From the IMG/VR virus record IMGVR_UViG_3300037264_003623, positions 45,084 to 109,083 of that record: a stretch of DNA of 64,000 bases. One strand, written 5' to 3'. The position numbers were made by a program, and so were the translations under genes. Source of the stretch: a virus. The notes under the pieces are model-generated. The model was not told the origin of the DNA, did no database searches, and saw only the letters and a list, made by a program, of their open reading frames with translations. The stretch's first letter is position 1, and each line of letters begins with the position of its first letter. Positions 99-48,968 of the stretch are shown one piece after another.

Positions 99-416
99 AT
101 GCTCATCGGGATGAGGGTTCGGAAGGACACGGATAAGGGCGAGGCTACCGTGTTCGAGTACCGGATGGGCCAGAATGGCAGGGTGGCCCTTACGGTCGGG
201 GATCCGAACGAGATCGTCTCGGAGATCACGCTGGGGTCGGGGGACAACACGATGATCGAGGACATGGGCGGGTCATACGGGGTGAGGATGCCCCCGTTCG
301 CGAAGGGGGCCGAGAAGACATACACCCCCGCCGACGGGGTGAGCTTCATCCTTGCGCTCCTCGTCCAGTTCAGCAGGAACAACGGCTACTCGTGGGCGGA
401 GCCGATCCTCTCATGA
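99..416 (+). CDS. small kinase-associated protein (putative immunity), paralog of 1603..1923
   Basis: RBS AGGAG; LIG.R...D.D.G....FEYR and TPADGVSFILALL..GY..AEP shared with 1603..1923. Confidence 0.75.
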   Translation: MLIGMRVRKDTDKGEATVFEYRMGQNGRVALTVGDPNEIVSEITLGSGDNTMIEDMGGSYGVRMPPFAKGAEKTYTPADGVSFILALLVQFSRNNGYSWAEPILS

Positions 417-1606
417 AGACGTTCTACTCCAGGAAGTTCGCGAGGTTCATGGGTTCCATCCTGGCGAAGGCCACATGGGACCCGGATCTCCACCCGAGGA
501 GCGAGGGCGGGAAGTTCTCCAGGACCGAGGGAGTCTCTGAGGAGAGGCGGGTCGCGGAGAGGCTCATGGGGACCTCGGCGGATCAGCTTGAGGCGGAGGC
601 ACGGGAGACCGAGCGGGAGGCTTCCGCGCTGAGGGCGATGGGGAAGGGCGAGAAGGCCGCGATGGCCGACGCCGTGGCGAGGGACCTGATGGAGAGGGCG
701 AAACTGGCGAGGGAGCCGGTCAGGGTGTTCAGGCCGGGATCGGAGCCGAGGAGGCCCGCCCCGCCGATAGATCCCACGAGGCATCCGCAGGAGTCCGTGA
801 GGGGGAGGGCAGAGACGATGAGAAAAGCCTCGGGGAAGCCTGAGGCTTTCATCATGAACACGCGCAGGGTCATGGGGGGCAAGGGAGAGTGCCACCGAGT
901 CCTCTTCGACGACGGGACCAGGGCCGCCTACAAGCCGACGGCGGGGTCCGTCCTTGTGCAGATGGAGAAGCAGGGCCGGGGTGAGGAGATCACGATCGAC
1001 CCGAAGATCCCGGAATCGAAGCGCGAACGGGCCGTCTTCGATCTCAGCGCGATGGCCGGGTTCGACGTGGTGCCCCCGGTCGAGCTCGTGGACTACGATG
1101 GGGTGGGGTCCCCCGGGGGCGGGCACGCTATGGCATGGGTGGACGGGCAGGAGGCCATTGACATCGAGGACCAGTACTACAAGGACATCTCCGCGAACCA
1201 TCCCGACCTTCACCGGATTGCGGCGCTCGACTTCATCACGGGCAATGTAGACCGGCACCAGGGGAACTTCATGAGGGGGAAGGACGGGCGCTGGTACGCG
1301 ATCGACAATGGCCTCTGCTTCACCAGGGACATGGAGCTCGGGATGTCGTGGTCCGATGTCATGCGGAAGCTCATGATGCACGTCACGCCGCCGGAGGTGC
1401 GGGCGGAGATCGCCTCGATCGACAAGGACGCTATGGGCGGAATCATGAAGGAGGCGGGCTTCGACGCCGTGGACATCAAGGCCGCGCAGACGAGGCTGGA
1501 TGTGCTCAAGGCCTTGGGCGGGTGGGGGACGGAGGGGCAAATGTACGGGGCGGCCGAGGACGCCTACTTCCAGGCGGGTGGGCGCAGGCGGCCAGGGAGG
1601 GAATGA
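413..1606 (+). CDS. HipA/PI3-PI4K-like kinase with N-terminal LAK|ATWDPDLHPRSEGGKF tag
   Basis: ATGA overlap start; motifs AAYKP, RERAVFDL, VVPPVEL, LDFITGNVDRHQGN, YAIDNGLCF. Confidence 0.85.
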   Translation: MKTFYSRKFARFMGSILAKATWDPDLHPRSEGGKFSRTEGVSEERRVAERLMGTSADQLEAEARETEREASALRAMGKGEKAAMADAVARDLMERAKLAREPVRVFRPGSEPRRPAPPIDPTRHPQESVRGRAETMRKASGKPEAFIMNTRRVMGGKGECHRVLFDDGTRAAYKPTAGSVLVQMEKQGRGEEITIDPKIPESKRERAVFDLSAMAGFDVVPPVELVDYDGVGSPGGGHAMAWVDGQEAIDIEDQYYKDISANHPDLHRIAALDFITGNVDRHQGNFMRGKDGRWYAIDNGLCFTRDMELGMSWSDVMRKLMMHVTPPEVRAEIASIDKDAMGGIMKEAGFDAVDIKAAQTRLDVLKALGGWGTEGQMYGAAEDAYFQAGGRRRPGRE

Positions 1607-1923
1607 TCGTGCTCATTGGGGTAAGATGGGTGAGGGACGTGGACACCGGGCGGGATGTGTCGTTCGAGTACAGGCTGGACCCGAGGACCGGCAAGGCTGT
1701 CCAGGTCGCGGGGCCCGCGAGGGCGAACGACGAGGTGATCCTCTCCCCGTGGGATGGGGTGATGGGCCCCGAGATCGCCAAGTATCACGGGATGGATTTC
1801 AAGCCGGTTCCGAAGGGCGGGAGGAGGCTGACCCCGGACGACGGGGTTGACTTCCTTCTCGCCGTTCTCGTCAAGTACGCGAGGAACACCGGCTACGGCA
1901 GGGTCGAGCCGATCAGCCGATAG
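1603..1923 (+). CDS. small kinase-associated protein (putative immunity)
   Basis: RBS GGAGG, ATGA overlap with the kinase; LTPDDGVDFLLAVL..GYGRVEP. Confidence 0.75.
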   Translation: MIVLIGVRWVRDVDTGRDVSFEYRLDPRTGKAVQVAGPARANDEVILSPWDGVMGPEIAKYHGMDFKPVPKGGRRLTPDDGVDFLLAVLVKYARNTGYGRVEPISR

Positions 1924-1932
1924 GAGGATCAG

Positions 1933-3258
1933 ATGGAGACGCCGTCGAGCAGGGCCACGAGCAATCTGATTTCCAAGTCCCTGGAGACCGTCCAGGAGAC
2001 GCCGGGCCAGGTGTCCTCGAAGGAGATGCAGGACCTCTCCGCGATGATCCTGAAGGCGATGGACGACCCCGCCTTCGTCGAGACGGTCTGCCCGAGCGGC
2101 GGCTGCCCCGAGCTCCGCGGCCTCCTCCTGGAGGTGGTCGAGCGGGCCAAGGAGGAGGACGACTCCCCCGAGGTCAAGGCGTGCGTCTCGAAGAAGATCC
2201 CGATCCTCATCGAAGAGGGATATCCGAGAGCCCAAAGTGTCGCGATCGCGTTCTCGGTTTGCCGCAAGGACCCGTCCGTCGCCGACAAGGCGGTGAAGGT
2301 CGAGGGGACGCCCCGCTACATGACCGAGGCGGAGCTCCGCGCCATGAAGCCGAAGAAGCCGGAGACCGACACGGACACGGAGATCGAGTCCGCGATCGGG
2401 TGCGATCTCGACGCGCTCAACAGGACGACTTCCGTCCTGATTTCCAAGGCCGGGACCTCTGATGGCGCGAAGCTGGGGTGGGAGACCCGTAGGGGCGGAG
2501 CGCCCACTGATGAACCCAAGGCTGGGATGCCCTCCAGGCAGGAGTGGGATGGGTTCCAATCGAACGCTGATGCGGTATTCGATGTCAGCAGGGGCGCGGT
2601 CAAAGAGGTTGAACGGATCGAGGAGAGGGCCATAGAAGCGGAAGAGGAGGGTAGATCCCGCCTACATCCGTTCGGCGTGAAAGAGCCGACGACGCCGAAG
2701 GGCGTGGAGCAGGCTCTGAACAAGCTGGCGGATGTCGCGCCGAAGGCCGCTGACCTCGCGGCGAGACTGAAAGGCGTCCCTGGGGTGGACGAGGGGAAGA
2801 GGAAGGCCGCTGAGGACAAGATGCGGGGATGGAAAGGTGGGGTGCCCCGTGAGGAGATGCAGGATTTCAACGACATCGTGTCCGACATCTACACGATGGT
2901 AGACAGCGCCAGGGCGGACCATGACCCGAAGTACATGGAGGGGTCCGAGCCCGTGACGCGGCCTTCCGTGGGCAAGGAGCTCGTTCTGAACCTGGGCGTG
3001 CAGAAGCGGTTCTTGTCCCTGCAAGACCTTGAGGGATTCAAGCCGACGAAACCGGAGGACGTCCGCCCGCCACGGGAGAGCACCAGGCACGAGGGCGAGC
3101 CGGAAGACTCGGGGCTTCGTCGCCTCATCATGCCGGGATGGGCCCGAAAGGGCGGCCAGGTTGCGCCTCCCGGTGACGTCCCGAAGGATAGGATCAGGGG
3201 CGATGGCTTGACCGAGATGCTCATGCCGAGCAGGAAAGAGGACGAGCCCAAGGAATAG
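1933..3258 (+). CDS. putative head-cargo protein with ISK|AGTSDGAKLGWETRR tag
   Basis: RBS AGGAGG; CVSKKIPILIEEGYPRAQSVAIAFSVC head-protein-like segment; tag at 2446-2493. Confidence 0.7.
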   Translation: METPSSRATSNLISKSLETVQETPGQVSSKEMQDLSAMILKAMDDPAFVETVCPSGGCPELRGLLLEVVERAKEEDDSPEVKACVSKKIPILIEEGYPRAQSVAIAFSVCRKDPSVADKAVKVEGTPRYMTEAELRAMKPKKPETDTDTEIESAIGCDLDALNRTTSVLISKAGTSDGAKLGWETRRGGAPTDEPKAGMPSRQEWDGFQSNADAVFDVSRGAVKEVERIEERAIEAEEEGRSRLHPFGVKEPTTPKGVEQALNKLADVAPKAADLAARLKGVPGVDEGKRKAAEDKMRGWKGGVPREEMQDFNDIVSDIYTMVDSARADHDPKYMEGSEPVTRPSVGKELVLNLGVQKRFLSLQDLEGFKPTKPEDVRPPRESTRHEGEPEDSGLRRLIMPGWARKGGQVAPPGDVPKDRIRGDGLTEMLMPSRKEDEPKE

Positions 3259-3273
3259 CGCACACGATGTGCG
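3259..3273. promoter_or_regulatory. 15-bp palindrome CGCACACnGTGTGCG, copy 1 (one mismatch)
   Basis: CGCACACGATGTGCG directly after the TAG of the previous gene. Confidence 0.55.
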
Positions 3274-3292
3274 GAAACCGGAGGAATACCCC

Positions 3293-3976
3293 GTGAAAGA
3301 GCGCAAGGACAAGGACCTGGGCTCGATTTTCAACGCCAAGTCCCTCCTCGACGGGCAGGGGACCCCACAGCGGGACACCGCCCAGAGCAGGAAGGTCGCC
3401 CTGGACTTCGCCGGGATGCTCGCGAAGGATGGCACGAGCGAGGGTGCGAAGAAGGGCTGGGAAACTCGACGCGGCGCGGCAGCCCTGTCCGAGGGCCCCA
3501 AGGAGTTCAGAGACTTCATGGTAGGAGCCATCGCCCAGCGCGACACCCCTGATGCCAAGGCGACGAAGGAGATGGCGGAGAATCTCAAGGACAGTGATGT
3601 TCCCCTGAAGGATGCTTTTACCGCCGCTCAGAAACGGGTTGACCAGGCCGACGCCCTCGCCGGGGAGACCCTCAAGCGGTTCGGCTCCGCCCTTTCCCAG
3701 TATCACGTCGACAACATCAATCGCGAGCGGGAGACGATCAAGCGGGCCATGGATGTCGCCGACAGGCATGTCCGGGAGAACAGCCGGGGGTATGCCGCCG
3801 ACGCCATCAGCAACGCCGTCGAGGGCGCGGACCTCATGTCGATCTGGGCATCTTCCGCGGTCGGAGAAGTCTGGAAAAAGCAGACCCGGGAGAGGGGGGT
3901 GGGGAAGTCCGGCACTTCCGAGGGGGTCCCGAAGACCCTCAAGGGGTCGTTCCTGACCGAAGGCGACACACAATAG
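3293..3976 (+). CDS. putative head-cargo protein with LAK|DGTSEGAKKGWETRR tag and a degenerate second tag
   Basis: GGAGG before GTG 3293; tags at 3425-3472 and 3905-3934. Confidence 0.7.
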   Translation: MKERKDKDLGSIFNAKSLLDGQGTPQRDTAQSRKVALDFAGMLAKDGTSEGAKKGWETRRGAAALSEGPKEFRDFMVGAIAQRDTPDAKATKEMAENLKDSDVPLKDAFTAAQKRVDQADALAGETLKRFGSALSQYHVDNINRERETIKRAMDVADRHVRENSRGYAADAISNAVEGADLMSIWASSAVGEVWKKQTRERGVGKSGTSEGVPKTLKGSFLTEGDTQ

Positions 3977-4001: not shown

Positions 4002-4029
4002 TTGGCGAATACGCTAAAGGGTGTATAAT
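4002..4029 (+). promoter_or_regulatory. sigma70-type promoter, probably leaderless transcript
   Basis: TTGGCG-16-TATAAT, ATG 6 nt downstream at 4036. Confidence 0.55.
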
Positions 4030-4035
4030 AGGATC

Positions 4036-5598
4036 ATGGAAGTGGGCGCGATCTATGACGTCCAGAAGGAAGGCACCTCCGAGGGTGCCTACCGCGGGTG
4101 GGAGACTAGGAGAGACGGCCCGAGGGCCGCCCCTTTCGTCGAAGCGCGGAGGAAGATTGGGAGCATGGTGGAGGAGGCCAACGAGGAGTTCAAGAGGGAG
4201 GTTGCTCTTCACCTGAAGGGTATCCCGAGCGACTACGCGGGGATGACACGCAGGGACAGGGAGAACAGAGCCGAAGGCCTGAGGCTCGTTCGGGATGCAG
4301 TCGAGAGACTGAGGGGGGCCGAGGTCGCGGAGGCGGACAGGGGTACGCTCGCCAGGATGATCGACTACGCGGAGCGGGAAGCCCCCATCATCAGCGAGCG
4401 CGACAAGGGGGACCGGAGGTGGCACGAGGAGTTCGACGCCTTCCTCGCCGAAGCCGAGGAGGTCGCGTCCAGGGCGAAGGAGCCCGAGGGAATGGAAAAG
4501 GGCGAGGTCGTCGTCTGGGAGCCGAGCAGGCATCCCCGGGGGGAGGGGGGCCGGTTCGCCCAGGCCGAGGCCAGGGATCCCGAGGAGAGGCGGAGGCTGG
4601 TCGAGTCCGCGGCGTCCGAGGCCGCCAGGCGGGTTATCGACAGCATGGGCCGAGACGCGAACAGGGTGATCTACGATACGGTGAGCGAGTTCGGCCTGTC
4701 CGGCAACGACGCGGCCGAGGCGTTCCAGATGGCCGACCGGAGGCTGCGGAAGGAGCGGGAGCTGGATGTGCTCCGCAAGGCCACTGGGGACCTGCTCTCG
4801 AAGGTCGAGTTCGAGGAGGACGAGCACCCGAGGGACCCCGCAGGCAGGTTCGCCTCCAGGGGAGAAGGGGTCGCGCCGAGGGCCGATGCCGTCTCGAAGG
4901 AGGAGATCGACAGGGTGTTCGACGGCAGGGCGAAGAACCCGAGCACGCCCGATGAGCAGAGCCGCCTGCACCAGGAGATCGAGGCCTCGGCGGACAGGGC
5001 GAGTCGGATGTCGCAGGAGGACCACATCTCCGGGGTGCCCGAGAGGATGACCAAGGTATCCGAGAGGGCGGAGGCCGTCGTGATGTCCCTCGGCAGGAGG
5101 ATCATGGAGGAGGGCGCAGCTAACTGGAAGGAGTTCGTCTTCGCGGTGGAGAACGGGAGCGGGGACGTGGTGGGGATGAGGGAGGGCGACAAGGAATCAG
5201 CGTCGTGCGTCGGGATCTACGGGGGGATGGACAGGGATAGGGGATACACGTTCGTCCACAACCATCCCACAAGCAACTCCTTCTCGGACGTGGACGTGAT
5301 CATATTCACTAGGATCCCCCAGTTTACGAGGGCGGTGGTGGTCAGCGGGATGTGGACGTACATTCTGGAGAAGCCGCCGGGGTGGAACTTCAGGAAGGTT
5401 TGGGGCGTGGACGATGCCAGGGCGGAGTACCTCCGCCAGAGCGACGTGCTGACGCCCAAGTACAAGCCCCCCGCCAACCCGGACGGGACGAGGGACGACG
5501 CCAGGGACAGGGTCGCGTGGCGGGAGCAGGGCCATGAGGTGATATCCAACCTGGCGAAGCTCTACGGGCTGTCCTACAGGAGGGAGAAGAGGGCATGA
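4036..5598 (+). CDS. polyprotein-like cargo with three tags and a C-terminal JAB/MPN (RadC-like) domain
   Basis: VQK|EGTSEGAYRGWETRR, MEK|GEVVVWEPSRHPRGEGGRF, LSK|VEFEEDEHPRDPAGRF; then E..HNHPTSNSFSDVD metal motif. Confidence 0.75.
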   Translation: MEVGAIYDVQKEGTSEGAYRGWETRRDGPRAAPFVEARRKIGSMVEEANEEFKREVALHLKGIPSDYAGMTRRDRENRAEGLRLVRDAVERLRGAEVAEADRGTLARMIDYAEREAPIISERDKGDRRWHEEFDAFLAEAEEVASRAKEPEGMEKGEVVVWEPSRHPRGEGGRFAQAEARDPEERRRLVESAASEAARRVIDSMGRDANRVIYDTVSEFGLSGNDAAEAFQMADRRLRKERELDVLRKATGDLLSKVEFEEDEHPRDPAGRFASRGEGVAPRADAVSKEEIDRVFDGRAKNPSTPDEQSRLHQEIEASADRASRMSQEDHISGVPERMTKVSERAEAVVMSLGRRIMEEGAANWKEFVFAVENGSGDVVGMREGDKESASCVGIYGGMDRDRGYTFVHNHPTSNSFSDVDVIIFTRIPQFTRAVVVSGMWTYILEKPPGWNFRKVWGVDDARAEYLRQSDVLTPKYKPPANPDGTRDDARDRVAWREQGHEVISNLAKLYGLSYRREKRA

Positions 5599-6704
5599 AG
5601 GATCCGAAGGTGCCGATCACCGAGTGGGACATCGACGACCGCGGCAACGTGCCTCCCTACGGGAACGCCGTCGCGAAGGAGGGCACTTCTGAAGGGGCGA
5701 AGCTGGGATGGGAAACGAGGCGGGAGGGCGGACAGGCGGAGGAGAAGAAGCCGGACGCCTCATCCTTCGAGACGCCCCCCGAGAATTGGCAGCAAAGTCT
5801 GCCGTACCAGCATCGGCTGAACTTGGGTGCATGGACGGAGTGGCTCACCAACCTGAGGATGTCCCATGTCTACCGCCAGGGGGGCGAGGCCAAGCCCTAC
5901 CGGCCAGAGTTCGCCGACGTCGCGGCTCGGCGCGAGGTCGGGCGGTGGCTCGATCGCAACGACGATAAGATGATCTACCACATCTCGCGGAAGGTGGACA
6001 TCTCGCATGGGCCGAGGGACGAGAAGATCGGCGAGGCGGTCGGGCTGGTTCAGGAGATCGTTCGCATGGCCCAGGCCGAGGCGCGGAGGGAGGCCGAGAC
6101 GCAGGCCAAGAAGAACCCTCTGTCCGGCGTCCTGTTCGGGAAGGCCAGGGTCGTGGGCGGATTCCCACTCACGCAGGAGGACGCGCTCGCGAAGGAAGGC
6201 ACGTCCGAAGGCGCCAAGAAAGGGTGGGAGACCAGGCGCGAGGGCGGCGGGGCGCTATCCGAAGAGGAGCGCAAGAGGGCCATTCGATCCCTTGAGGTGC
6301 GGGGCGCGGCGGACAGGGGCGACGTGTCCGTGAAGATCGTCCCCCTTCTTACCGGGGAGGGGTTCGGGGTGGAGACCACGGTGGCTGGCGACAGGAGGAA
6401 CCCGAGGGAGCCCGCCATGACGATGGAGGAGGCACGCAGGTTCGCCCTGGAGCAGCTCCAGAGCCCCCGCCCGACCCAGACCCCCGAGATGAAGCCGAAG
6501 CCCGAGGCGGAGGAGAAGAAGCCCTCTCCGACGCCCGTGAGGCCCTACAGGAACCCCGGAGACTTGGCCGCCGACTACAAGCGGCAAGGTATCCCGAAGC
6601 AACGTGCCTGGGATCAGTTCATCATCGACACTGTCCTCTCCCCGAAGTTCCGGTCGGAGCAGGTGGACGCGAGGGAGTTCTTCCAGGCCTACGATAGGGC
6701 GTAG
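5595..6704 (+). CDS. polyprotein-like cargo with two GTSEGAK.GWETRR tags
   Basis: Tags at 5676-5723 and 6192-6239; ATGA overlap. Confidence 0.7.
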   Translation: MKDPKVPITEWDIDDRGNVPPYGNAVAKEGTSEGAKLGWETRREGGQAEEKKPDASSFETPPENWQQSLPYQHRLNLGAWTEWLTNLRMSHVYRQGGEAKPYRPEFADVAARREVGRWLDRNDDKMIYHISRKVDISHGPRDEKIGEAVGLVQEIVRMAQAEARREAETQAKKNPLSGVLFGKARVVGGFPLTQEDALAKEGTSEGAKKGWETRREGGGALSEEERKRAIRSLEVRGAADRGDVSVKIVPLLTGEGFGVETTVAGDRRNPREPAMTMEEARRFALEQLQSPRPTQTPEMKPKPEAEEKKPSPTPVRPYRNPGDLAADYKRQGIPKQRAWDQFIIDTVLSPKFRSEQVDAREFFQAYDRA

Positions 6705-8029: not shown

Positions 8030-8032
8030 GAT

Positions 8033-39729: not shown

Positions 39730-42700
39730 GGTCCCGAAGCCGGACATGGCGGCGCTCCGGAACGACCTGACCTACCTCGCCCGCCTCGACGGCGAGATCT
39801 CGGGGCGGATCAAGTCTCAGGACCCGAGGACGTATGGCCTTCCTGACCTCCTCCGACCCAAGGAGGACGGTGAGACGGAGGAGCAGCTTGTCGATCGGCA
39901 GAACCGGGAGATCAAGGACCTGATCGAGAAGCAGCTCTGGGTCCTGAAGGACGCGAGAAGGCTCGCGATCAAGCTCTCGCCCCCGATGGTCGACTTCATC
40001 GCCACGATGTTCTACCGGCGGGCGAACCTCGCGATCCTGTGGAAGGGGCGCGGCTCCGGCGGGACCCTGTGCGCGGCCATCCTCGTCTGGCTCTGCCTCG
40101 TCTACCACCGGATGTCGTTCACCAGCATGGCCGGGTGCCTCCTGCCGGGCACGCTCGTCTCCACAAGGAGGAGGGGGTGGGTGCCGGTGGAGGACGTGTC
40201 TGATGATGATGAGGTGGTGGGGCGGGACGGGGTGGTCCGCAGGGTAGTCTCGAAGACCTCGAAGGAGTGGGACGGTCCGATCACTAAGTTGGAGCCCCAC
40301 GGTTTCGACGGGAACTTCTTCACCTCTGACCACCGAATCTGGGTCCTTCGTGATGCGGTCGAAGAGGATAAGCGCGGGCATCTTGTTGGGCAGGATATTC
40401 GGCGGTGGGACACCATGTCTCCGGAATGGGTCCCGTGCGGAGAGGTCACGAGGCGGGACGTGTTTGTCCTCCCGAGGCCGAAGCGGACGGGCGTCCTGCT
40501 GCCGTCCCTGATGGTGTCGACCGGCGTCGGGGGCAAGGGGGAGAAGGTGGAGGTGCCTTGGACGCCGGATCTCTGCCGATTCATCGGGTACTGGCTTGCC
40601 GAGGGTAGCGTCTATCGACTCAAGGATGGGGGTCGATTTGTTCGGTTCGATGTGGGGAAGCGGGATCAGTGGCTTGATGACCTTCAGGATCTGATCGTGC
40701 GGTTGTTCGGCAGGAAGCCTTCCTACGATGAGCCGGGGGGGGATCTGACACTTGAGGCGAGGGTGCGGTTCGGGTCGAAGGATGTGGCCCAGTTCCTGGA
40801 GGACAACTTCGGGACCGGGGCGGTCGGAAAGCGCATCCCGTGGGAGATGGTGGTGGGTCTCGACGACGAGTGCGCGATGGCCCTACTCGCCGGTTTCCTT
40901 CGGGGAGATGGGGCCGTGGACATGACGAGCCGAGGGGGGCTCGACGTGTCTCTTTATACGGTCTCCCCTGCCCTCTCGTCCGGGATCTACTGGCTGTCTT
41001 TGCGCCTTGGCCTGGTCCCGTCGCTGGGGATCTCGAAGCCGAAGAATCGCAGCGGCTTTCACAAGGTTCACGACGGGTGGAGGATGCGGTACGGGTCCAT
41101 CGACGCCGATCGTCTTCTGGAGGAGGCGTTCGGTTGGCGCTCTCAGAAGGAGAGGGTTTCGAGGCAGCGTAGGGTGTGGGTCTCCGAGGACCGGGTGTAC
41201 GTCGGCGTGAGGGACGTGAAGCACTCGACCTATCAGGGCGAGGTGTGGGACCTTGAAGTCGAGGGGGACCCGTCGTTCTCCGTTCCGATGATGGAGGTTC
41301 ACAACTCCACCGAGCAGGCTAAGCTGATCTACCAGTACACCAAGTCCTTCTGGGAGTGCTTCCCGGTCCTGTCGGAGTCGCTCCTTGAGGTGGACCCCCT
41401 CCAGACCGAGACCAGGCTGAAGAACGGGGTCATCCTCAAGATCATCAGCGCGTCGGAGAAGCAGACACGCGGCAAGCACAACCCCGGGTTCATCGTTGAC
41501 GAGTCCTGCCAGTCGTCGCAGAACGTGGACTACCTGATCCAGGCCGCCATGCAGGGCTCGATGTCCGAGCCCAACCACATGGTGGTGGTGCTCTCGACCT
41601 TCCACTACCCGATTGGTCTGTTCCAGGAGCTGTGGGACTACGCCGAGGAGCGCGGGTTCAAGCGGTTCAACTGGGACTGCGTCCTGCCCGGAACGTGGAT
41701 CATCACTGCCAGGGGCCTCATCAAGATCGAGGAGGTGGTGGCGGGGGATCTCGTCCTTGCCGAGAACGGCAGGTTCGAGACGGTGGAGAGGGCGTGGTCG
41801 TCGCAGGTCTCGGGCGGGGCTGTCCGAATCTTTCCGTATGGATGGACCGAGGGGATCGAGACTACACCAGACCATCGTTTCAAGGTTCGTAGGGATGGCC
41901 GGGACGATTGGGTCGAGGCGTCGAAGATCCGCGAGGGGGACGATCTTGTTTTCCCGCGTCCGCAGAGGGCGGGGGTTTCGGTCGATCATCTGGGGTCGCA
42001 GATCTCGCCGGACTTCGCCCGTTTTCTCGGGTACTGGTACGGGGACGGGTGGCTTGATGGGAACCGGGTCGGCATCTCGTTCGGAGATCCCGAGAAGTTC
42101 AAGGAGGACTACCTGTCGCTCGTGGGCGGGCTGTTCAAGGCCGACGTTCGTCTGAGGCATAGGGAGCCCAACGAGCAGGGCAGGTTCGACAATGGGCCGC
42201 TCGCTGACTGGATGAGGACGGTTGGGTATCGGGGCGGGGAGAAGCATGTCCCGATCGAGATGGTCCTTGGGATGTCGGACGACGCGCTTCGGGAGTTCGT
42301 GACCGGGATGCTCAGGACGGATGGGTGCGTGACGTTGGCGAACGGGGTGCCGGTCGTGAAGTTCACCCAGGTCTCCTCAAGCGTGACGTGCGCCGTGTTT
42401 CTTGCGTGCGCCAGGCTTGGGGTGTTCATGGCCGTGGACAGGAGGCGGCAGTCCACCTTTGTCATCGAGGGGAGGGAAGTATCGGGCCAGGACTGGTGGA
42501 TGCTTCGGTCGGGGGGGAGGGACACGGATCGGCTCATGGGGTGGCTCGGGGAGTCTACGGATAGGGTTATGAGGAATGGGCAGCACTCCCTGGATGGGGA
42601 CGTGTATCTTACGCGGGTGAGGAAGGTCGAGCGGAGAGAGTACGCCGGACTCGTATTCGATCTGGCGGTCAAGGACGTCCACTCGTTCTCGATGCCCTGG

Positions 42701-45079
42701 GCGGTGGCCCACAACTGTTACGACTCGATGTCCCCCTGCAACGAGGGGCTGCTGACCGCCACGGAAGGAGACCCGGACGCCCTGGAATTCTGTCGGACGC
42801 AGTGCCCGCTGACGGAGAAGCGGTCGAACCTCGACGCCGAAGGCAACCAGGATGGGTGGAAATACATCGGGTGCGGCGGGAAGGCACGGCACTCCGAGGG
42901 GTTCCAGACCAGGGCCAACATGATCCTGGCGAAGAAGATGAACCGGGGGACGGACGTCTTCGAGAACGAGTACGAGAACAACCGGCCCAAGTGGATGCAG
43001 CCGATCTACAACCCCGAGCTCGTCGACCAGATTCTCGTGCCCGAGACGTGGCCGCTGCCATCGGCCTCGGACGCGGAGGCCCCTGACGTCGTGGCGGGTA
43101 GGGTCATGGGTGATAGCGGGTTCGAGATCGTCGAGAAGTCGGTGGGGATCGACTGGGGGTTGGAGGGGCAGACCGCTCTGGTCCTGGCGGCCCTGATTCG
43201 GTTCCATCGTTCGAGGCCGGTGGTGCCCTCCAAGGGTCTCCCGGATGGACCGCCGGTCGACTGGTGCATCGGGATCCTGGAATCCGAGTTCCTGTCGGGG
43301 AAGCTCACGTCCGAGGCCATTAAGGTCCTCATGATGTGGCAGGAGATGTACGGGGAGAACAACTTCTTCGTCTACGGCGACGCGAGCCACCCATTCAACA
43401 ACCTGGAGGTCGAGCAGGCCGGGTTCAACACCAACAACGTGCAGTTCGCCAAGTGGAAGGACTATGGGGTGGGGAACTGCATCAAGTATCTCGTGACGCC
43501 GGGCAAGCTGTTCATCAGGGAGAACCTGCACACCCTCCTGGATCAGATGAAGCGGTACAGGAGGGACAAGTTCGGGAGGCCGATTAAGAAGGACGACCAC
43601 GGTCCTGACGCATGGATGTCCTATCTCGATGCCAAGACGAGAGTTATAACACGTTCGGGATGGACCCCGGTGGGAAGGCTGGGTGTGGGGGTTGAAGTTC
43701 TGACGCATGCCGGAAGGTTTCGTCCGATCGTCAGGTATGAGCCCGCCCGCTACACGAGAGGGAGTCTTGTGGAGGTGAACTTTGCGGGTCAGACGCATCC
43801 GGTCGATGCCCATCGAGTGACTCTTGAACATCCGTTCCAGCTTGATGATGGTTCATGGGTTGAGGCTGAGAACCTGAAGTCGGGGATGAGGGTCCGGTGT
43901 CTGGCCTCTCGATGTGCTAGGTGCGGGATGAAGATCCCCTGGTCGCGCAAGTTTTGTGACGGGTGCGTAGGGAAGGGACGTAACGTGAGATGGAAAAATC
44001 CTGGGGAGCGCGAGCGGGTAGAGGCCGAAAAGAAGGCGGAGGCTCTCCGATCCGAATACGCGACGGGAGCGCGAGACGCGGCCACGAACGCAAGGGCTGC
44101 GACAGCGGCTCGGGCCGACATGATCCGGTCGAACCCTGGGGAGAGAGAGAAGGTCCGAGAACATCTGAGAGCGATTCTTCCGCTGGTGAATACGCCCGAG
44201 AAGAGGGTACGGCAGTCACATCTGATGAAGATGCTTCACGCCAGGGAGGGATTCTTTGATCATCTTCGTACCCTTGAAGGGAGGGAGAATGCCCGTCAGC
44301 GGGTCATCGCACGGATGCTTGCTGATCGTCAGATTCCCTTCAACTGCCGTTTGAGGCACTTCACCGACATCGAGCGGGAGATGTTCGACTCGTTCGTGAG
44401 GGCGGGATTCGAGCCGGTTCATAATCTTCGGGTTGGACGATGGTTTCTTGACGTTGCTCTCCCGGAGTTGAAGGTCGCGGTGGAGTGCGACGGGGGAAAC
44501 TGGCACAACTCGAAGCAGGCTCGGGAGAGGGACGCCAAGAAGGACGCCTACTTGAGGGGACACGGATGGGAGGTGTTCCGGTTTTCAGGGAAACGGATCA
44601 AGGACGACGTGGACGGGTGCCGGGACGATGTTCTGCGGGTTGCGGCCAACCACGAGGGTCTCTACGAGTTCACTTCGATCGAGGTCGTCTCGGTGAAGAT
44701 CGTCGAGATGAAACGGCCACGGACGGCGTACCACTTTGAGGTGGAGGAGGACCGGAGCTACGTGGCCCGTGGGATCGTCTCCCATAACTGCTCGATGCTC
44801 CACTACCGGTTCGAGGAGAGGTTCCACGAGGTGTACGACATCGAGGCGGCCCCGCCGAAGGCCGCTTCCAGCGCGATGCCCATCCCCGCCCCCGTGGCGG
44901 GGGCGTTCGGGGTTGCCCCAGTCACCTGTTCGCCCGACTTCGGGGGGGATTCCTTCTCCCAGCCGGTCCTGTTCGGCGGCGTCCAGGCCCCTGCGATGGA
45001 TCGTCCGGCTGGTTCTCCTATTGACACAAGGGGCAAATCACGGAAGACTGGTGGTAACGGTTCCGTGGTCGTCATCTGA
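39707..45079 (+). CDS. terL: terminase large subunit with three inteins (about 664 aa after splicing)
   Basis: KGRGSGGT, STEQA, FIVDE, LSTF, GIDWG, YGDAS, KKDDHGPDA. Confidence 0.9.
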   Translation: MVSKPKTKVPKPDMAALRNDLTYLARLDGEISGRIKSQDPRTYGLPDLLRPKEDGETEEQLVDRQNREIKDLIEKQLWVLKDARRLAIKLSPPMVDFIATMFYRRANLAILWKGRGSGGTLCAAILVWLCLVYHRMSFTSMAGCLLPGTLVSTRRRGWVPVEDVSDDDEVVGRDGVVRRVVSKTSKEWDGPITKLEPHGFDGNFFTSDHRIWVLRDAVEEDKRGHLVGQDIRRWDTMSPEWVPCGEVTRRDVFVLPRPKRTGVLLPSLMVSTGVGGKGEKVEVPWTPDLCRFIGYWLAEGSVYRLKDGGRFVRFDVGKRDQWLDDLQDLIVRLFGRKPSYDEPGGDLTLEARVRFGSKDVAQFLEDNFGTGAVGKRIPWEMVVGLDDECAMALLAGFLRGDGAVDMTSRGGLDVSLYTVSPALSSGIYWLSLRLGLVPSLGISKPKNRSGFHKVHDGWRMRYGSIDADRLLEEAFGWRSQKERVSRQRRVWVSEDRVYVGVRDVKHSTYQGEVWDLEVEGDPSFSVPMMEVHNSTEQAKLIYQYTKSFWECFPVLSESLLEVDPLQTETRLKNGVILKIISASEKQTRGKHNPGFIVDESCQSSQNVDYLIQAAMQGSMSEPNHMVVVLSTFHYPIGLFQELWDYAEERGFKRFNWDCVLPGTWIITARGLIKIEEVVAGDLVLAENGRFETVERAWSSQVSGGAVRIFPYGWTEGIETTPDHRFKVRRDGRDDWVEASKIREGDDLVFPRPQRAGVSVDHLGSQISPDFARFLGYWYGDGWLDGNRVGISFGDPEKFKEDYLSLVGGLFKADVRLRHREPNEQGRFDNGPLADWMRTVGYRGGEKHVPIEMVLGMSDDALREFVTGMLRTDGCVTLANGVPVVKFTQVSSSVTCAVFLACARLGVFMAVDRRRQSTFVIEGREVSGQDWWMLRSGGRDTDRLMGWLGESTDRVMRNGQHSLDGDVYLTRVRKVERREYAGLVFDLAVKDVHSFSMPWAVAHNCYDSMSPCNEGLLTATEGDPDALEFCRTQCPLTEKRSNLDAEGNQDGWKYIGCGGKARHSEGFQTRANMILAKKMNRGTDVFENEYENNRPKWMQPIYNPELVDQILVPETWPLPSASDAEAPDVVAGRVMGDSGFEIVEKSVGIDWGLEGQTALVLAALIRFHRSRPVVPSKGLPDGPPVDWCIGILESEFLSGKLTSEAIKVLMMWQEMYGENNFFVYGDASHPFNNLEVEQAGFNTNNVQFAKWKDYGVGNCIKYLVTPGKLFIRENLHTLLDQMKRYRRDKFGRPIKKDDHGPDAWMSYLDAKTRVITRSGWTPVGRLGVGVEVLTHAGRFRPIVRYEPARYTRGSLVEVNFAGQTHPVDAHRVTLEHPFQLDDGSWVEAENLKSGMRVRCLASRCARCGMKIPWSRKFCDGCVGKGRNVRWKNPGERERVEAEKKAEALRSEYATGARDAATNARAATAARADMIRSNPGEREKVREHLRAILPLVNTPEKRVRQSHLMKMLHAREGFFDHLRTLEGRENARQRVIARMLADRQIPFNCRLRHFTDIEREMFDSFVRAGFEPVHNLRVGRWFLDVALPELKVAVECDGGNWHNSKQARERDAKKDAYLRGHGWEVFRFSGKRIKDDVDGCRDDVLRVAANHEGLYEFTSIEVVSVKIVEMKRPRTAYHFEVEEDRSYVARGIVSHNCSMLHYRFEERFHEVYDIEAAPPKAASSAMPIPAPVAGAFGVAPVTCSPDFGGDSFSQPVLFGGVQAPAMDRPAGSPIDTRGKSRKTGGNGSVVVI
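40136..41305 (+). mobile_element. intein 1 in terL, LAGLIDADG
   Basis: G|CLLPGT..TSDH..FIGYWLAEG..LAGFLRGDG..VHN|S. Confidence 0.92.
41678..42715 (+). mobile_element. intein 2 in terL, LAGLIDADG
   Basis: D|CVLPGT..TPDH..FLGYWYGDG..VTGMLRTDG..AHN|C. Confidence 0.92.
43619..44788 (+). mobile_element. intein 3 in terL, Ser1, DUF559/Vsr-like endonuclease
   Basis: M|SYLDAKT..TLEH..LDVAL..AVECDG..WH..GWEVFRF..SHN|C. Confidence 0.85.
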
Positions 45080-45096
45080 TCCGAAGGAGAACAGCG

Positions 45097-45434: not shown

Positions 45435-46142
45435 ATGGTTCCATCGCGGGGCGAGGACGGCCTGTCCGTCCTGAAGTCTGTCACCAGGGGGATGGTCGAG
45501 AAGTTCAATCCCTTCCACGACGAGCAGGGGCGTTTCACCAGCGCGTCGGGTGGGGAGAAGGAGTCGATGGGGCGCTCCGAGCGTGAGCTGGAGCAGAAGC
45601 ACGTCGACTACATCCACGCCAACGAGAAGGCGGGCAAGACGCCGGGCCCCCGCGGCCACTTCCTCCATTACACGACCAAGGCGGAGATGACCGGAAGGGA
45701 GCCAGAGGGCTGGAAGAAGTTGAACACCAAGATCGGCAACTACGAGGGGATGGCGAACGCCTACATCAAGAGGGGGACGGAGAAGGGGGCGGAGGGTTGG
45801 CAGAGGAAGCTCAATCTGGCGCGTGCCGAGACCATGCGGAAGGCCTCCGATCAGTACAAGAGGCAGAGGGACAAGATCGAGGTCCCGAAGGCCGAGGCCG
45901 CTCCTGCGTCCGCCGTTCCGAAGCCGGAGGAGAAGTCGATGGAAGCTGCCAAGGCCAAGATCCATCCGCTTCTTGCGGCGGACTTCAAGCTGATCGAGGA
46001 GGCGCACGGGTACAGCGCGGAGGAGGAGAGCAAGCTCCCACCCGAGGAGATCAAGCAGGTCAAGGTCGGTGCCGTGAAGGACGCCGTTCGGATCGGGATG
46101 ATCACGGCCGAAGAGGGCAAGGAAATCATCGACGGGCTGTAA
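45435..46142 (+). CDS. putative head-cargo protein with VEK|FNPFHDEQGRF tag
   Basis: Tag at 45501-45536. Confidence 0.7.
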   Translation: MVPSRGEDGLSVLKSVTRGMVEKFNPFHDEQGRFTSASGGEKESMGRSERELEQKHVDYIHANEKAGKTPGPRGHFLHYTTKAEMTGREPEGWKKLNTKIGNYEGMANAYIKRGTEKGAEGWQRKLNLARAETMRKASDQYKRQRDKIEVPKAEAAPASAVPKPEEKSMEAAKAKIHPLLAADFKLIEEAHGYSAEEESKLPPEEIKQVKVGAVKDAVRIGMITAEEGKEIIDGL

Positions 46143-46152: not shown

Positions 46153-47298
46153 ATGTCCACCGAGAAGACTCCGTGGGAAGGACGCCTCGGGATCGAGGTG
46201 ATGGGCAAGATGCACGGATGCTGCGTCGGGACCATCGCCAAGTGGCGGCCCCAGATGATCGGGGTCAAGAAGGAGTGCTCCTACTGCGGCTCCTTCCTGA
46301 AGACGATCCGGGCGGGCGAGGTACTCTCCCCCGTCTTCACGGGCGGCATGCTGGAGCACCACCGGGACGTCGAAGAGCCCCCGATGGTCATCGGCGGGCT
46401 CTACTTCGCCTCGTACAAGTTCCCGACCGAGGAGGCCGTGAAGGCGTGGATGGGCGAGCGGGAGATCCCGGGGGACTTCGTCGGCAAGATCGACGACCAT
46501 GCCTTCTACCACCCCATCGACGACTCCCTCATGGTGAACTCCGTCCGGCTGATCTGGGTCGCCCCCGGCGTCGTGGGAGAGATCGGGGTGTCCGAGAAGC
46601 AGGTCGCCACGGGTGGGGGCCAGGCGTCCATGTCGTCCCCCGGAATGACGACCACATCCATCGCGTCCGGGGGTGATCTCTTCCCGGCCCAGGGCCCGGC
46701 GCAGGCTGCCGCCGAAGTCCCTGGCGTGCCGTCCGTGATCCAGGGGATCACCGACGTGCAGGACGGGCACCAGCACGAGTTCTTCCTGACGCCTACCCCC
46801 GAGGTCGGCGGGTGGAGGGTCAAGTCGTTCACGTCCTACAACAGCGGGCACGCGCACATGGTGGAGTGCTCCATCGGGGCGGGCGGAGAGATCGATACCA
46901 GGACGGCCCCGGACCAGACCCCCGTGGGCGGGCACGCGCACGCGCACCGGATCGCGTGGCCGGTCGGCAAGTCCTTCGGCGAGACGAAGCCCTACGAGAG
47001 GCAGTTCCGGGTCACCTCCGGCGACGTGGTCCTGCTCCGCCGGGCGGCGGGGATGGTGGACAACTTCTGCAAGAACATCCAGAATGGCAGGAGTGTCCTC
47101 GACTCCGCGAGCGACTTCCAGGCCCAGCTCTCCAGCGCGATCGAGAGGGCCAGGGGGCAGGTCACGGGCATGGAGGGGGTGGTCGCCATCAAGACCGCGG
47201 ACATCGAGCGCCTCCAGGGGTGCGCGAAGTTCATCGACGACATGGGCGACGGCCTCGCCATAAACATCGGGATGGAGAAGGGGAAGGAGCAACCATGA
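46153..47298 (+). CDS. head-associated protein with HxH metal-binding repeats
   Basis: KFPTEEAVKAWM; DGHQH, SGHAH, GHAHAH. Confidence 0.65.
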   Translation: MSTEKTPWEGRLGIEVMGKMHGCCVGTIAKWRPQMIGVKKECSYCGSFLKTIRAGEVLSPVFTGGMLEHHRDVEEPPMVIGGLYFASYKFPTEEAVKAWMGEREIPGDFVGKIDDHAFYHPIDDSLMVNSVRLIWVAPGVVGEIGVSEKQVATGGGQASMSSPGMTTTSIASGGDLFPAQGPAQAAAEVPGVPSVIQGITDVQDGHQHEFFLTPTPEVGGWRVKSFTSYNSGHAHMVECSIGAGGEIDTRTAPDQTPVGGHAHAHRIAWPVGKSFGETKPYERQFRVTSGDVVLLRRAAGMVDNFCKNIQNGRSVLDSASDFQAQLSSAIERARGQVTGMEGVVAIKTADIERLQGCAKFIDDMGDGLAINIGMEKGKEQP

Positions 47299-48515
47299 AC
47301 GAGGGACGCGACGTATGGAGCGGGGGCAACCTCTCCGAGAAGGGTGTCCAGGTCAACAAGTCGCTCCGCAGGGGCCTCGACATCCACAAGGGCATGGAGC
47401 TCTTCCCGAAGAAGGCGAAGCCCTCCGAGATCGATCAGACCCTCGAAGATCTCCAGGATGCCCAGGATTACATCGAGAAGGAGAGGAGACTCCGCAAGGT
47501 CGGAGGCCCTTTCGTCAATAGCCCCCTCGTCGAGAAGGAAGGTACCTCCGAGGGGGCGAAGCGCGGATGGGAGACCCGTCGAGAGGGTGGGGCCGGAGAT
47601 GAGGAGAAACCGACGGGTTCCTCCAAGGCCGAGCGTATGGGCATCCAGAACCCCGACTCCTCCGGCATGGGATCCCACCCGGACCACGACAAGCATCCCC
47701 TTCACGAGACCCTCGCCAACGCGGGGCTTGAGTATTCCCACTCGGTGGTGGTCAACCACGGGTCGGGGGACGACCGCGTCCATCACGCCTACAAGATCCC
47801 CGGAACCGACCGCCAGGTCGGGGTACACCAGACGGCGAAGGGCGACTGGATGTGGGAGTCGAGCAAGGCCGGTTCGGGCCGCATGAAGACGGGGGGAGAC
47901 GCGGCCTCCCTGGCCTCCCACCTCAAGAGGGCGGAGAAGGGCCTCGATGGCGACGAGTCGGTGCGGATCTCCAAGGACCAGGTCGAGAAGATCCTGAAGG
48001 ACGCAGGGTGGGACAAGCTCCCGCTCCCCGACAAGGCGAAGGAGGCACTGGAGGATCTGGTCAGCAACGGGGCGAAGCCGGTGTCCGAGTACACCGGGAA
48101 GATCATGGTGGAGCATGGGATTCCCGAGGAGCCACCGGCGTTCGTCAGGCCGAAGAAGCTGGAAGTCGGGGACATGGTGATCCCGATCGACTGGAGGTCC
48201 GTCGGGGCGTTCGGGGGAAAGTTCGACATGCCGATGGTGCCCCAGGCCGCCAAGGTGAAGAAGATCTACATGGGCCCCGCGAGGGTCTCGAAGAACGCCT
48301 ATCCGTTCGGAAGGACGCCTGCTGATCTCTCCAAGGTCGAGATGGTCACCGAGGATCGGATGTGGGGACTCGACCTGGAGGAGGGGAAGGTCAAGAAGGA
48401 CGACGACACTTTCCCCTCCCCTGTTTCTACCCGGGACACTACAATGGTACTTCGGATGGAGGCGCTGGCCTCGCCAGAAGGGGAGATCAACCCCGGCGCG
48501 GCATCGCCTCGTTGA
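47295..48515 (+). CDS. putative head-cargo protein with VEK|EGTSEGAKRGWETRR tag
   Basis: RBS AAGGAG; tag at 47535-47582. Confidence 0.72.
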   Translation: MNEGRDVWSGGNLSEKGVQVNKSLRRGLDIHKGMELFPKKAKPSEIDQTLEDLQDAQDYIEKERRLRKVGGPFVNSPLVEKEGTSEGAKRGWETRREGGAGDEEKPTGSSKAERMGIQNPDSSGMGSHPDHDKHPLHETLANAGLEYSHSVVVNHGSGDDRVHHAYKIPGTDRQVGVHQTAKGDWMWESSKAGSGRMKTGGDAASLASHLKRAEKGLDGDESVRISKDQVEKILKDAGWDKLPLPDKAKEALEDLVSNGAKPVSEYTGKIMVEHGIPEEPPAFVRPKKLEVGDMVIPIDWRSVGAFGGKFDMPMVPQAAKVKKIYMGPARVSKNAYPFGRTPADLSKVEMVTEDRMWGLDLEEGKVKKDDDTFPSPVSTRDTTMVLRMEALASPEGEINPGAASPR

Positions 48516-48516
48516 A

Positions 48517-48531
48517 CGCACACGGTGTGCG
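48517..48531. promoter_or_regulatory. 15-bp palindrome CGCACACGGTGTGCG, copy 4
   Basis: Perfect palindrome 1 nt after TGA 48515. Confidence 0.6.
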
Positions 48532-48548
48532 GTTTTTCGGAGGAGCCC

Positions 48549-48968
48549 ATGAACCTTGGAAACTACGCGAGATCGGGGGCTGGCAAGGTGTCCAAGTCCC
48601 AGCGGGCGCGGGAGGGCGACGTCAACAAGCAGTTCGACCCGACCAAGCAGCCCCGCGTGCCGTCGAACATCCCCGGGGCGGGGCCGCAGGGCGTCCCCCC
48701 GGCGGATCGCGACGAGATGGCCGCCTTCGCCAGGACCGGGAACGCGGAGATGATCCCGCAGGTGGTCGCGGCTCAGACGGGCCTCGCCTCCCACGGGCCC
48801 GCGCTGGCCTCCTCGCTCGCCCGGATGGGCGGGCAGGTGCGCCTGTCGCCGGGGCAGTTCCGCGCCTGGGCGAACCCGCAGGACCCGGCCCCGAAGCCCT
48901 CGACGCAGGTCACGAGCGATGCGTCGAAGCCGGGTTCGCTGCCGCCTCCGGCCCCCCCGGTGTACTAG
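48549..48968 (+). CDS. putative head-cargo protein with VNK|QFDPTKQPRVP tag variant
   Basis: RBS GGAGG; Pro-rich. Confidence 0.62.
   Translation: MNLGNYARSGAGKVSKSQRAREGDVNKQFDPTKQPRVPSNIPGAGPQGVPPADRDEMAAFARTGNAEMIPQVVAAQTGLASHGPALASSLARMGGQVRLSPGQFRAWANPQDPAPKPSTQVTSDASKPGSLPPPAPPVY

Follow-up and report, generated by a model that had tools for sequence, protein, structure and literature searches.

The window, by which we mean the whole 64,000-nucleotide stretch of DNA analysed here (positions 45,084 to 109,083 of IMG/VR record IMGVR_UViG_3300037264_003623), is part of the genome of an uncultured large phage. Two repeated peptides were found in it by six-frame scans, tag1 (core G-T-S-[ED]-G-A-x-x-G-W-E-T-R-R) and tag2 ([WF]-x4-H-P-R-x3-G-[RK]-F). 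The genes for the large terminase (terL), portal, protease-scaffold protein and major capsid protein (MCP) all lie in the window, which marks the phage as one with portal-terminase packaging:

39683..45079, + strand: large terminase with three inteins, at the start of the head-gene block (phrog_9, E 4.9e-6 for one extein piece)
58101..61250, + strand: portal protein with an HNH intein (PF04860, E 2.8e-20; phrog_12, E 5e-34)
61228..62943, + strand: predicted prohead protease (N-terminal ~170 aa) fused to a scaffold-like region (AF2/Foldseek, Atlas, conserved residues)
63005..64000, + strand: major capsid protein, truncated at the contig end (phrog_1623, E 2.5e-56; PF05065)

The insertions in the large terminase contain Intein, LAGLIDADG and DUF559 domains, and MuF (PF04233) had no match in the 109-kb record, which is incomplete. 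The tag carriers are:

392..1606, + strand: protein A (404 aa), K-terminated leader (residues 1-26), tag2, PI3/PI4-kinase-like domain
1933..3258, + strand: protein B (441 aa), leader ending L-I-S-K, untagged phrog_2423-like unit, tag1, second unit
3269..3976, + strand: protein C (235 aa), 53-aa leader, tag1, one unit; ends inside a degenerate tag
4021..5598, + strand: protein D (525 aa), three tagged units headed by tag1, tag2 and tag2
5595..6704, + strand: protein E (369 aa), two tag1-headed units, with tag1 at residues 30 and 202
45435..46142, + strand: protein F (235 aa), leader ending M-V-E-K, then a tag2 variant
47295..48515, + strand: protein H (406 aa), 81-aa N-terminal unit, tag1 after L-V-E-K, 325-aa unit

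The tags themselves, with the residues before them, are as follows (all tag1 copies are on the + strand and within long ORFs):

476..517, + strand: tag2, W-D-P-D-L-H-P-R-x3-G-K-F, after I-L-A-K
2452..2493, + strand: tag1 (six-frame scan), after L-I-S-K
3431..3472, + strand: tag1 (six-frame scan), after M-L-A-K
3911..3937, + strand: degenerate tag1 remnant G-T-S-E-G-V-P-K-T, after V-G-K, 13 codons ahead of the protein C stop
4072..4113, + strand: tag1 (six-frame scan), after D-V-Q-K
4516..4557, + strand: tag2, with G-M-E-K six residues upstream of Trp
4810..4851, + strand: tag2, after L-L-S-K-V-E
5682..5723, + strand: tag1 (six-frame scan), after A-V-A-K
6198..6239, + strand: tag1 (six-frame scan), after A-L-A-K
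45504-45536, + strand: tag2 variant F-N-P-F-H-D-x2-G-R-F (FNPFHDEQGRF), after the M-V-E-K that ends the leader
47541-47582, + strand: tag1 of protein H, after L-V-E-K

The six tag1 copies had been listed in a first-pass annotation (there beginning 6 nt earlier, at the preceding K), as had the tag2 copies at 476, 4516 and 4810 and the variant at 45504, and all of them were recovered. That annotation counted eight tagged genes; seven window genes carry tags, because FDPTKQPRVP (48633), taken there for a tag, is without the His and without G-[RK]-F, reads FSPTGQPRVS in a relative's 71%-identical homologue, and was rejected. From the six-frame composition of the window, ~4e-9 copies of tag1 and 0.02 copies of tag2 are expected by chance, compared with 6 and 3 seen. 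A third kinase-like protein carries an extra strict copy of tag2 at genome position 43398, 1.7 kb before the window begins. Codon pairs at the 11 invariant non-Trp positions of the window tag1 copies are identical in just 36% of cases, so conservation acts at the peptide level, as had been argued at first sight. The carriers are otherwise unrelated, the tags being the sole similarity between them detected by tblastn, which agrees with the original description. The two clusters described there are distinct in position: cluster 2 follows terL directly and lies within the head-gene block, whereas cluster 1 (0.4-6.7 kb) is outside that block, ~33 kb from the head genes.

Most carrier modules in the window are without a Pfam match. 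Protein A, a single-domain protein, is the only carrier in the window with a match to its domain, and its designation as a kinase holds at the Pfam threshold (PF00454, E 1.1e-7, 32.5 bits vs cut-off 27.1); tblastn placed paralogues at genome 43.1-45.2 kb and window 49996-50898, the latter below the PF00454 threshold. Tags and unit homology together delimit 2-3 modules each in proteins B, D, E and H, and the multi-unit ORFs first described are real, proteins D and E carrying several tags each. Protein B has one internal tag, at residue 174, and its units are homologous to units of P0001, P0006 and P0011; its unit B_u0 is untagged, though leader and site are present. Residues 54-213 of protein C correspond to residues 568-727 of P0006 at 75% identity, an end-to-end match to an internal polyprotein unit, and where protein C has its degenerate tag P0006 has a full tag and then a B-type unit. 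Protein D (tag1 at residue 18, tag2 at residues 171 and 269) has its units in reverse order in P0002. Domains like the one at its C-terminus (residues 345-525) are attached elsewhere to MuF, minor-capsid and portal proteins, as judged from its structural neighbours in the Atlas (TM by query 0.72-0.82). For a JAB domain there, just an H-N-H-P..S-x-x-D string was picked out by eye; Pfam and PDB sequence searches for it returned nothing, the Atlas Prok-JAB and RadC clusters score just 0.82-0.83, and the single-sequence AF2 model is unusable (pLDDT 44). The protein F homologues P0090 and P0092 retain the tag2-variant motif, and P0028 has both protein H units plus an extra tag-flanked unit between them. 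K-terminated leaders stand ahead of the first tag in proteins A, C, D, E and F, where this tag is near the N-terminus; in proteins B and H the internal tag stands apart from the leader or N-terminal unit. The leaders before the first tag are amphipathic in several carriers.

Beyond this genome, tag1 was matched in 549 or more protein clusters, with as many as nine stretches in a single protein, and both tags are widespread in phage multi-enzyme proteins (clear multi-effector examples being P0021, P0029, P0038 and P0067). Tag1 sits between InPase, zeta-toxin, NUDIX, GNAT, ART and kinase domains, and PBECR domains are also among those separated by tags; these are typical domains of injected effectors. 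The proposed link to head-associated proteins also finds its counterpart there, with tag1 following domains of Mu-type portals, of MuF and of the Mu I protease: a tag lies between a Mu portal and an ART-like domain (the latter by motif) in P0053, between the Mu I protease and its own scaffold part in P0044, P0051 and P0052, and in MuF+ART and portal+InPase proteins in P0091 and P0093. MuF fusions with tags outside this genome include P0091 and one K-type protein. No conjugation domains were seen among the domains of tag-bearing proteins. We found no published description of either peptide in the literature, and tblastn, which is insensitive to motifs this short, retrieved no cultured phage with the tags.

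The tags stand at module heads, not module ends. Among 170 proteins the first tag is at most 40 aa from the N-terminus in 57 (within 15 aa of the start in 13), and the last tag is at most 40 aa from the C-terminus in 3. The 20 residues following a tag are G/P-rich and poor in hydrophobics. Between relatives, units are swapped at tags, and modules are shuffled there; several 'polyprotein' units are separate genes in this window, and the G006 polyproteins of 869 and 911 aa are represented by separate ORFs in this genome.

A second element precedes the tags. In this genome [LIVM]-x-K comes before 12 of 12 tag copies, the degenerate copy included, and the same pattern recurs in the head proteins. 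The MCP here begins with a variable 20-aa leader ending M-I-E-K, followed by the conserved body; among its relatives (all K-type) the leader varies in length and sequence, and its end, [ILV]-E-K then [TS]-I, is invariant in 28 of 28. At the protease/scaffold border [LIVM]-x-K is invariant in 21 of 21 sequences, and the protease-scaffold family has 8 conserved [LIVM]-x-K columns vs 0-2 for nine other P1 residues, an excess that is partly compositional, Lys being frequent in sequence of the scaffold type. No tag accompanies the sites in MCP and scaffold, therefore the tag is not required for cutting as such. The protein most likely to cut at [LIVM]-x-K is the protease-scaffold protein. An AF2 model of its N-domain from 21 homologues (pLDDT 72.8) supports a prohead-protease fold of the HK97/T4 gp21/herpesvirus assemblin type: the top Foldseek match is T4 gp21 (5jbl; probability 0.99, TM 0.53 by target, E only 0.013), followed by the KSHV, EBV and PrV (herpesvirus) proteases. 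His72 and Ser129 are invariant in the 21 sequences, and the Atlas (language-model) neighbours are Peptidase_S78 clusters with scores of 0.94-0.95; Pfam Peptidase_S78 gave no match even at E 10.

A survey of the residues before the tag in 314 tag1 copies, from the 170 proteins, shows L/V/I at position -4 in 81%. Position -2, always two positions ahead of the first Gly of tag1, is a lineage-specific K, A or N. Within a protein, position -2 agrees in 88% of pairs vs 31% when shuffled; the figures for agreement at positions -3 and -1 are just 26% and 45%. In extended tag2 the K precedes the conserved start by one to three residues, and tag1 and tag2 of one genome share their P1 type (K in G000 and G006, N in G002 and G004), although the residues before tag2 in P0084 are without a clear hydrophobic-x-P1 pattern. 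The P1 type follows the protease family, as judged from about eight independent contigs: among the relatives searched, the contigs with a Pfam S78 match (G021, G025) are all K-type and those with Mu-like_Pro (G001, G002, G005, G017 and, weakly, G015) all N- or A-type, one Mu-like_Pro contig being A-type rather than N-type. Mu-like_Pro is present in 4 of 49 non-K tag proteins vs 0 of 63 K-type ones, and most A-type contigs searched yielded no recognisable protease.

On balance, and with moderate confidence, we read the junction as a head-protease site plus a retained module header on capsid cargo. Its first part, hydrophobic-x-Lys, would most likely be cut in the procapsid by the phage's own scaffold-fused prohead protease; its second part, one residue later, would be a conserved header peptide, either tag1 (G-T-S-E-G-A-x-K-G-W-E-T-R-R-x-G) or tag2 ([WF]-[DE]-x3-H-P-R-x3-G-[RK]-F), which would lead via a Gly/Pro-rich linker into a variable effector module. 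We infer that the carriers, which are kinase-like proteins and multi-module proteins of the 'polyvalent protein' kind, would probably be loaded into the head, cut to single modules that keep the header at each new N-terminus, and delivered along with the DNA. Since each cut module would keep it there, the header may act as a per-module handle rather than a removable address. Of the candidate roles, we put first the docking of soluble cargo to the protease or head interior, and second a lead-in for exit via portal and tail. The earlier idea that polyproteins are cut into tagged units is consistent with the conserved hydrophobic-x-P1 site before every tag.

In T4 the capsid-targeting sequence (CTS) is N-terminal and removed, short leaders being cleaved from cargo that is injected with the DNA. 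T4 head processing (gp21, L/I-x-E sites, CTS of IPI-III and Alt) resembles the proposed system in protease fold class and in the hydrophobic P3 with a defined P1, but the P1 residue here is Lys, in whose place other tag lineages have Asn or Ala; the tag, unlike the T4 CTS, lies after the putative cut, is internal and repeated, and is common to very distant phages. In HK97, gp5, which is cut at K103/S104, has T-F-N-K before Ser104 (sequence inspected), and the cut made by gp4 (Peptidase S78; gp5 delta domain) after Lys is thus in a comparable hydrophobic-x-K context, whereas the protease here is below the Pfam S78 threshold and fused to a scaffold. HK97 is not known to have packaged cargo or tags.

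That the tag itself is a capsid-targeting or ejection signal like the T4 CTS, with cleavage secondary, seems to us unlikely. The first-pass annotation saw an address label, and its tags are real, peptide-selected and borne by unrelated proteins; what is not supported is the removable address of T4 type, since the probable cut is upstream of the tag, which would therefore remain on the released module, and the internal repeats likewise speak against a removed N-terminal signal. An address would fit tags that are the sole common feature of unrelated carriers, that are borne by proteins associated with head genes and with fusions to portal or MuF, that appear once per module (as expected if released pieces are handled singly), and that in the 13 proteins with a tag within 15 aa of the start leave no room for a separate leader. 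Against it, tags also follow portal and protease domains already in the head, every polyprotein module is tagged though a single address would suffice, separate K-terminated leaders precede the first tag in this phage, and B_u0 has leader and site with no tag.

It is decidedly doubtful that the tag is purely a docking or exosite motif that presents substrates to assemblin-fold prohead proteases, with no role after cleavage. The rigid spacing from P1 to tag (two positions for tag1; K one to three residues before tag2) would suit such a motif, as would the absence of tags from MCP and scaffold, which co-assemble with the protease, and their presence on soluble cargo. However, the same tag is shared by lineages that differ in P1 specificity and protease family (S78-like, Mu I-like), and the extreme N-terminal tags of P0036 and P0091 have nothing upstream to remove. 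A role after delivery (effector stability, localisation or activation), or a mere linker or recombination joint, in either case with no cleavage, is very improbable. In its favour, the points of module shuffling coincide exactly with tags, ORF C ends at a degenerate tag, and PMC5512222 reports full-length transfer of plasmid polyvalent proteins, TraC1 and Sog among them; but peptide-level conservation with free synonymous change disfavours a DNA recombination signal, and a passive linker would hold neither eight invariant residues across unrelated phages nor a lineage-specific -2 residue plus a hydrophobic -4.

Among the closest known systems are the phage-type polyvalent proteins and the effectors fused to portal or MuF (Iyer, Burroughs, Anand, de Souza, Aravind 2017; PMC5512222). 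These combine several unrelated effector modules per polypeptide in phages with portal-terminase packaging; the tag proteins share their InPase, zeta toxin, NUDIX, GNAT, ART-PolyVal, PBECR and MPTase-like repertoire and include Mu portal and MuF fusions. That paper proposes processing before or after packaging, and autoprocessing by embedded metallopeptidases, whereas the site pattern here points to the prohead protease; text searches of it returned no mention of short junction peptides. The P1 Dar proteins (processed DdrB, DarB), as described in PMC5512222, and the SPN3US/phiKZ ejection proteins, as described in PMC7411985 and PMC10052503, are large, head-internal, proteolysed and host-delivered, and would be comparable to the carriers. 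The SPN3US/phiKZ sites differ in being of x-x-E type, and no shared header peptide was found reported in the literature for either group.

More tentatively, we consider it possible that interchangeable headers and a lineage-specific head-protease site form a general grammar for the capsid-carried effectors of unrelated tailed phages, with a header set of G-T-S-E-G..G-W-E-T-R and H-P-R..G-R-F and, probably, G-P-G-S-G..G-R-P-G as a third member. In such a grammar the junction would specify both the cut points of the precursor and the handling of each piece in the head or at ejection; injected effectors would be readable directly from phage sequence, and foreign proteins would be loadable into capsids by an added junction.

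As a rule, what a phage carries in its head and injects is learned only through proteomics of cultured phages. With a sequence signature of cargo modules and their processing sites, injected effectors (here kinases, ARTs, zeta toxins, NUDIX enzymes and nucleases) could be predicted across metagenomic phages; such a signature would also delimit the units in which 'polyvalent' proteins really function, and account for their evolution by module swapping at tags. The P1 residue before the tag may reveal the specificity of prohead proteases, which is known for very few phages, and the junction would offer a testable means of getting chosen proteins into phage capsids in the laboratory.

A sequence scan recovered in place the six copies of tag1 (G-T-S-[ED]-G-A-x-x-G-W-E-T-R-R) and the three copies of tag2 ([WF]-x4-H-P-R-x3-G-[RK]-F) that the first-pass annotation had located in the window, together with a degenerate tag1 at 3911 and a variant of tag2 (F-N-P-F-H-D..G-R-F) at 45504; one more strict tag2, the fourth, is found a short way upstream of the window, inside a third kinase-like protein. 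A chance match was rejected, because the copies expected from composition (4e-9 for tag1, 0.02 for tag2) are far below those seen. Identical codon pairs make up only 36% at the invariant residues, which agrees with the proposed selection on the peptide; since codons differ between copies, a DNA-level repeat or recombination signal was likewise rejected. The tags are, as had been claimed, the sole similarity among the carrier proteins. FDPTKQPRVP, counted earlier as a further variant, is not a tag, so that the tag-carrying genes of the window number seven and not eight.

The kinase-like assignment of one carrier is backed by Pfam. The JAB domain named in the first-pass annotation found no support in Pfam or in a PDB sequence search. 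Three PI3/PI4-kinase-like paralogues are present in this phage (window 392-1606 and 49996-50898, and 43.1-45.2 kb of the genome), two of which follow tag2, and polyvalent proteins that bear tags in other phages contain this domain as well. Two paralogous ORFs of ~105 aa (window 99-416 and about 1603-1923) each stand directly after a kinase-like gene, that of P0088 and that of protein A, and overlap its stop; they gave no family match and may act together with the kinases or regulate them. For the C-terminal domain of protein D, another carrier, a homologue search recovered only the domain itself, and a single-sequence AF2 model reached a pLDDT of 44. Compared with predicted models, this domain is similar (TM 0.72-0.82) to domains that are attached to MuF, minor-capsid and portal proteins, which connects it modestly with the virion as well.

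The record is a linear IMG/VR virus of 109,083 bp with 63% G+C and an estimated completeness of ~75%; the window forms its final 64 kb, and nearly all genes lie on the + strand. Its head genes are:

39683-45079, large terminase, split by three inteins that contain LAGLIDADG and DUF559/Vsr-like nuclease parts
58101-61250, portal with one intein carrying an HNH nuclease
61228-62943, 570-aa protein (predicted protease-scaffold)
from 63005, major capsid protein (MCP), truncated by the contig end

The first cluster of tagged genes (0.4-6.7 kb) lies a long way from the head genes, and a search of the genome yielded no MuF. Two neighbouring DUF2589 proteins (55868-56500, E 1.9e-25; 56656-57177, E 8.7e-14) are encoded between tail-fibre-like genes and the portal. 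The MCPs of two contigs, G006 (116 kb) and G007 (108.7 kb), are 91% identical to that of the window. The two contigs are overlapping parts of a single ~160-kb genome of a close relative (loci L048-L059), yet they are assigned to two archaeal MAG bins (Bathyarchaeia and Methanomicrobiales); they are probably mis-binned.

The tags are distributed well beyond this phage. A strict back-translated pattern of tag1 was found in 13 IMG/VR contigs and a looser pattern in 29 stretches, and in MAG contigs the back-translated pattern matched 12 stretches, mostly of Kiritimatiellia and Verrucomicrobiota. A tag1 profile (42 columns, built from 20 copies) matched 549 clusters (50% identity, E<=1e-3) among 1.84 billion proteins, with up to 9 matched stretches per protein; 170 of the proteins retrieved carry 314 copies at a median spacing of 183 aa. 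Tag1 sits between InPase, zeta-toxin, NUDIX, GNAT, ART, cytidylyltransferase, PI3/4-kinase-like and PBECR domains, and it also occurs after Mu-type portals, in one MuF protein, and between the Mu I protease and its scaffold part. No conjugation or T4SS domains were detected among the 168 proteins scanned. Tag2 behaves like tag1, with five copies ~300 aa apart in one protein (P0084) and with carriers that combine MuF and ART (P0091) or portal and InPase (P0093). Phage Mu itself has no tags, and tblastn searches of cultured phages and plasmids with a 24-aa tag, protein E and protein D, which are insensitive to 14-aa motifs, gave no match. Neither tag was described in the open-access papers searched (weak evidence of absence), and a text search of the polyvalent-protein paper (PMC5512222) returned no mention of them.

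Judged by their position in the sequences, the tags stand at the head of modules. Of the 170 proteins, 57 have their first tag no more than 40 aa from the N-terminus, and 3 have their last tag equally close to the C-terminus. Downstream of a tag, the next 20 residues are Gly/Pro-rich and poor in hydrophobic residues, and L, I, V and M are more frequent in the 20 that precede it. Modules have also been exchanged at the tags. Unit C of the window (residues 54-213) matches an internal unit of P0006, a related polyprotein, end to end with 75% identity; the stop of ORF C falls inside the degenerate tag, 13 codons beyond the decayed motif (window 3911-3976), precisely where P0006 goes on with a full tag and a B-type unit, so that the end of ORF C resembles a scar left by breakage or recombination at the tag junction. 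The order of the D units is reversed in P0002, one additional tag-flanked unit separates P0028 from protein H, and G006 carries like units in two polyproteins, of 911 and 869 aa, each of which has four tags. A separate gene and a segment of a polyprotein are therefore equivalent, in keeping with the proposed release of single modules.

Every tag copy in the genome is preceded by [LIVM]-x-K, and where the first tag lies near the N-terminus in this phage it follows a leader ending in K. The MCP also has an N-terminal leader, 6-25 aa long and variable in sequence among 28 relatives (67-92% identity), which ends with [ILV]-E-K followed by [TS]-I in 28/28; all of these relatives are K-type, and none has tags within 10 kb. 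A PF05065 search of the N-type contigs found no MCP. In HK97 gp5 the sequence before Ser104 is T-F-N-K, and cleavage of gp5 at that position is established.

The protein at 61228-62943 has no match in Pfam. Its AF2 model, built from a 21-sequence alignment (pLDDT 72.8), has T4 gp21 (5jbl) as its top PDB match (probability 0.99, E only 0.013), followed by herpesvirus proteases; its language-model neighbours are Peptidase_S78 clusters, and His72 and Ser129 are invariant in the 21 homologues. The most frequent hydrophobic-x-P1 site in these homologues is again [LIVM]-x-K (17 per sequence), with eight columns kept in at least 70% of them, compared with 0-2 columns for nine other P1 residues. One of these conserved sites, A-I-S-K, closes the N-terminal domain and is present in 21/21.

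Among the 314 tag1 copies, position -4 is L, V or I in 81%, and position -2 (the P1 residue) is K in 41%, A in 27% and N in 14%. Within multi-tag proteins, 88% of tag pairs share the residue at -2 (31% after shuffling), whereas agreement is only 26% at -3, 45% at -1 and near chance at -5 to -8; the agreement at -2 is therefore not merely a matter of copied flanks. The P1 type is common to tag1 and tag2 within a genome (K in G000 and G006, N in G002 and G004). Pfam S78 matches were confined to K-type contigs (G021, G025), which adds to the S78-like enzyme of this phage, and Mu-like_Pro was confined to N-type contigs (G001, G002, G005 and, weakly, G015) plus one A-type contig (G017); searches of the A-type contigs for S78, Mu-like_Pro, S77 and ClpP detected no other protease. 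Mu-like_Pro is fused to tags in 4/49 non-K proteins and in 0/63 K-type proteins. The P1 type appears to follow the protease family (3 versus 5 contigs with zero crossover, Fisher p ~0.02 by our own arithmetic, a small sample).

Further motifs were noticed beside the two tags. One (G-G-P-G-S-G-H-F-G-H-A-G-R-P-G-x-V-G-G-S) lies upstream of the window at genome position 41442 (about 11440 of locus L032), in a 349-aa ORF (L032:11256-12305) after a leader and L-L-T-R; it follows F-L-E-K in G006 and is also present in contig G003 and in proteins P0137, P0060 and P0067. This recurrence suggests a third interchangeable header type. Among cultured phages, 464 records gave InPase-domain matches to a tag-bearing protein, P0029, and the one inspected, Leptospira phage LE1, has a different repeat instead of a tag: the product of its gene LE1-0025 (L095, annotated 'tail protein') combines an InPase-type region with two copies of the spaced motif A-Q-V-G-E-x-R-T-W-x-D-G-x3-R-K-x3-G-W, which may be an additional junction motif in a cultured phage.

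The first-pass annotation had proposed an address label like that of T4. The tags, however, lie after the putative cut, are repeated, and follow portal and protease domains already in the head, so that our reading departs from such a label, the header here being retained downstream of the predicted cut. The best-supported reading is that each tag forms part of a composite junction, in which a predicted prohead-protease site precedes a header that is kept: the prohead protease would cut at the site, and the header peptide would stay on the released module. The rigid one-residue gap between site and tag suggests that the header either docks to the protease or is needed at the exact new N-terminus.
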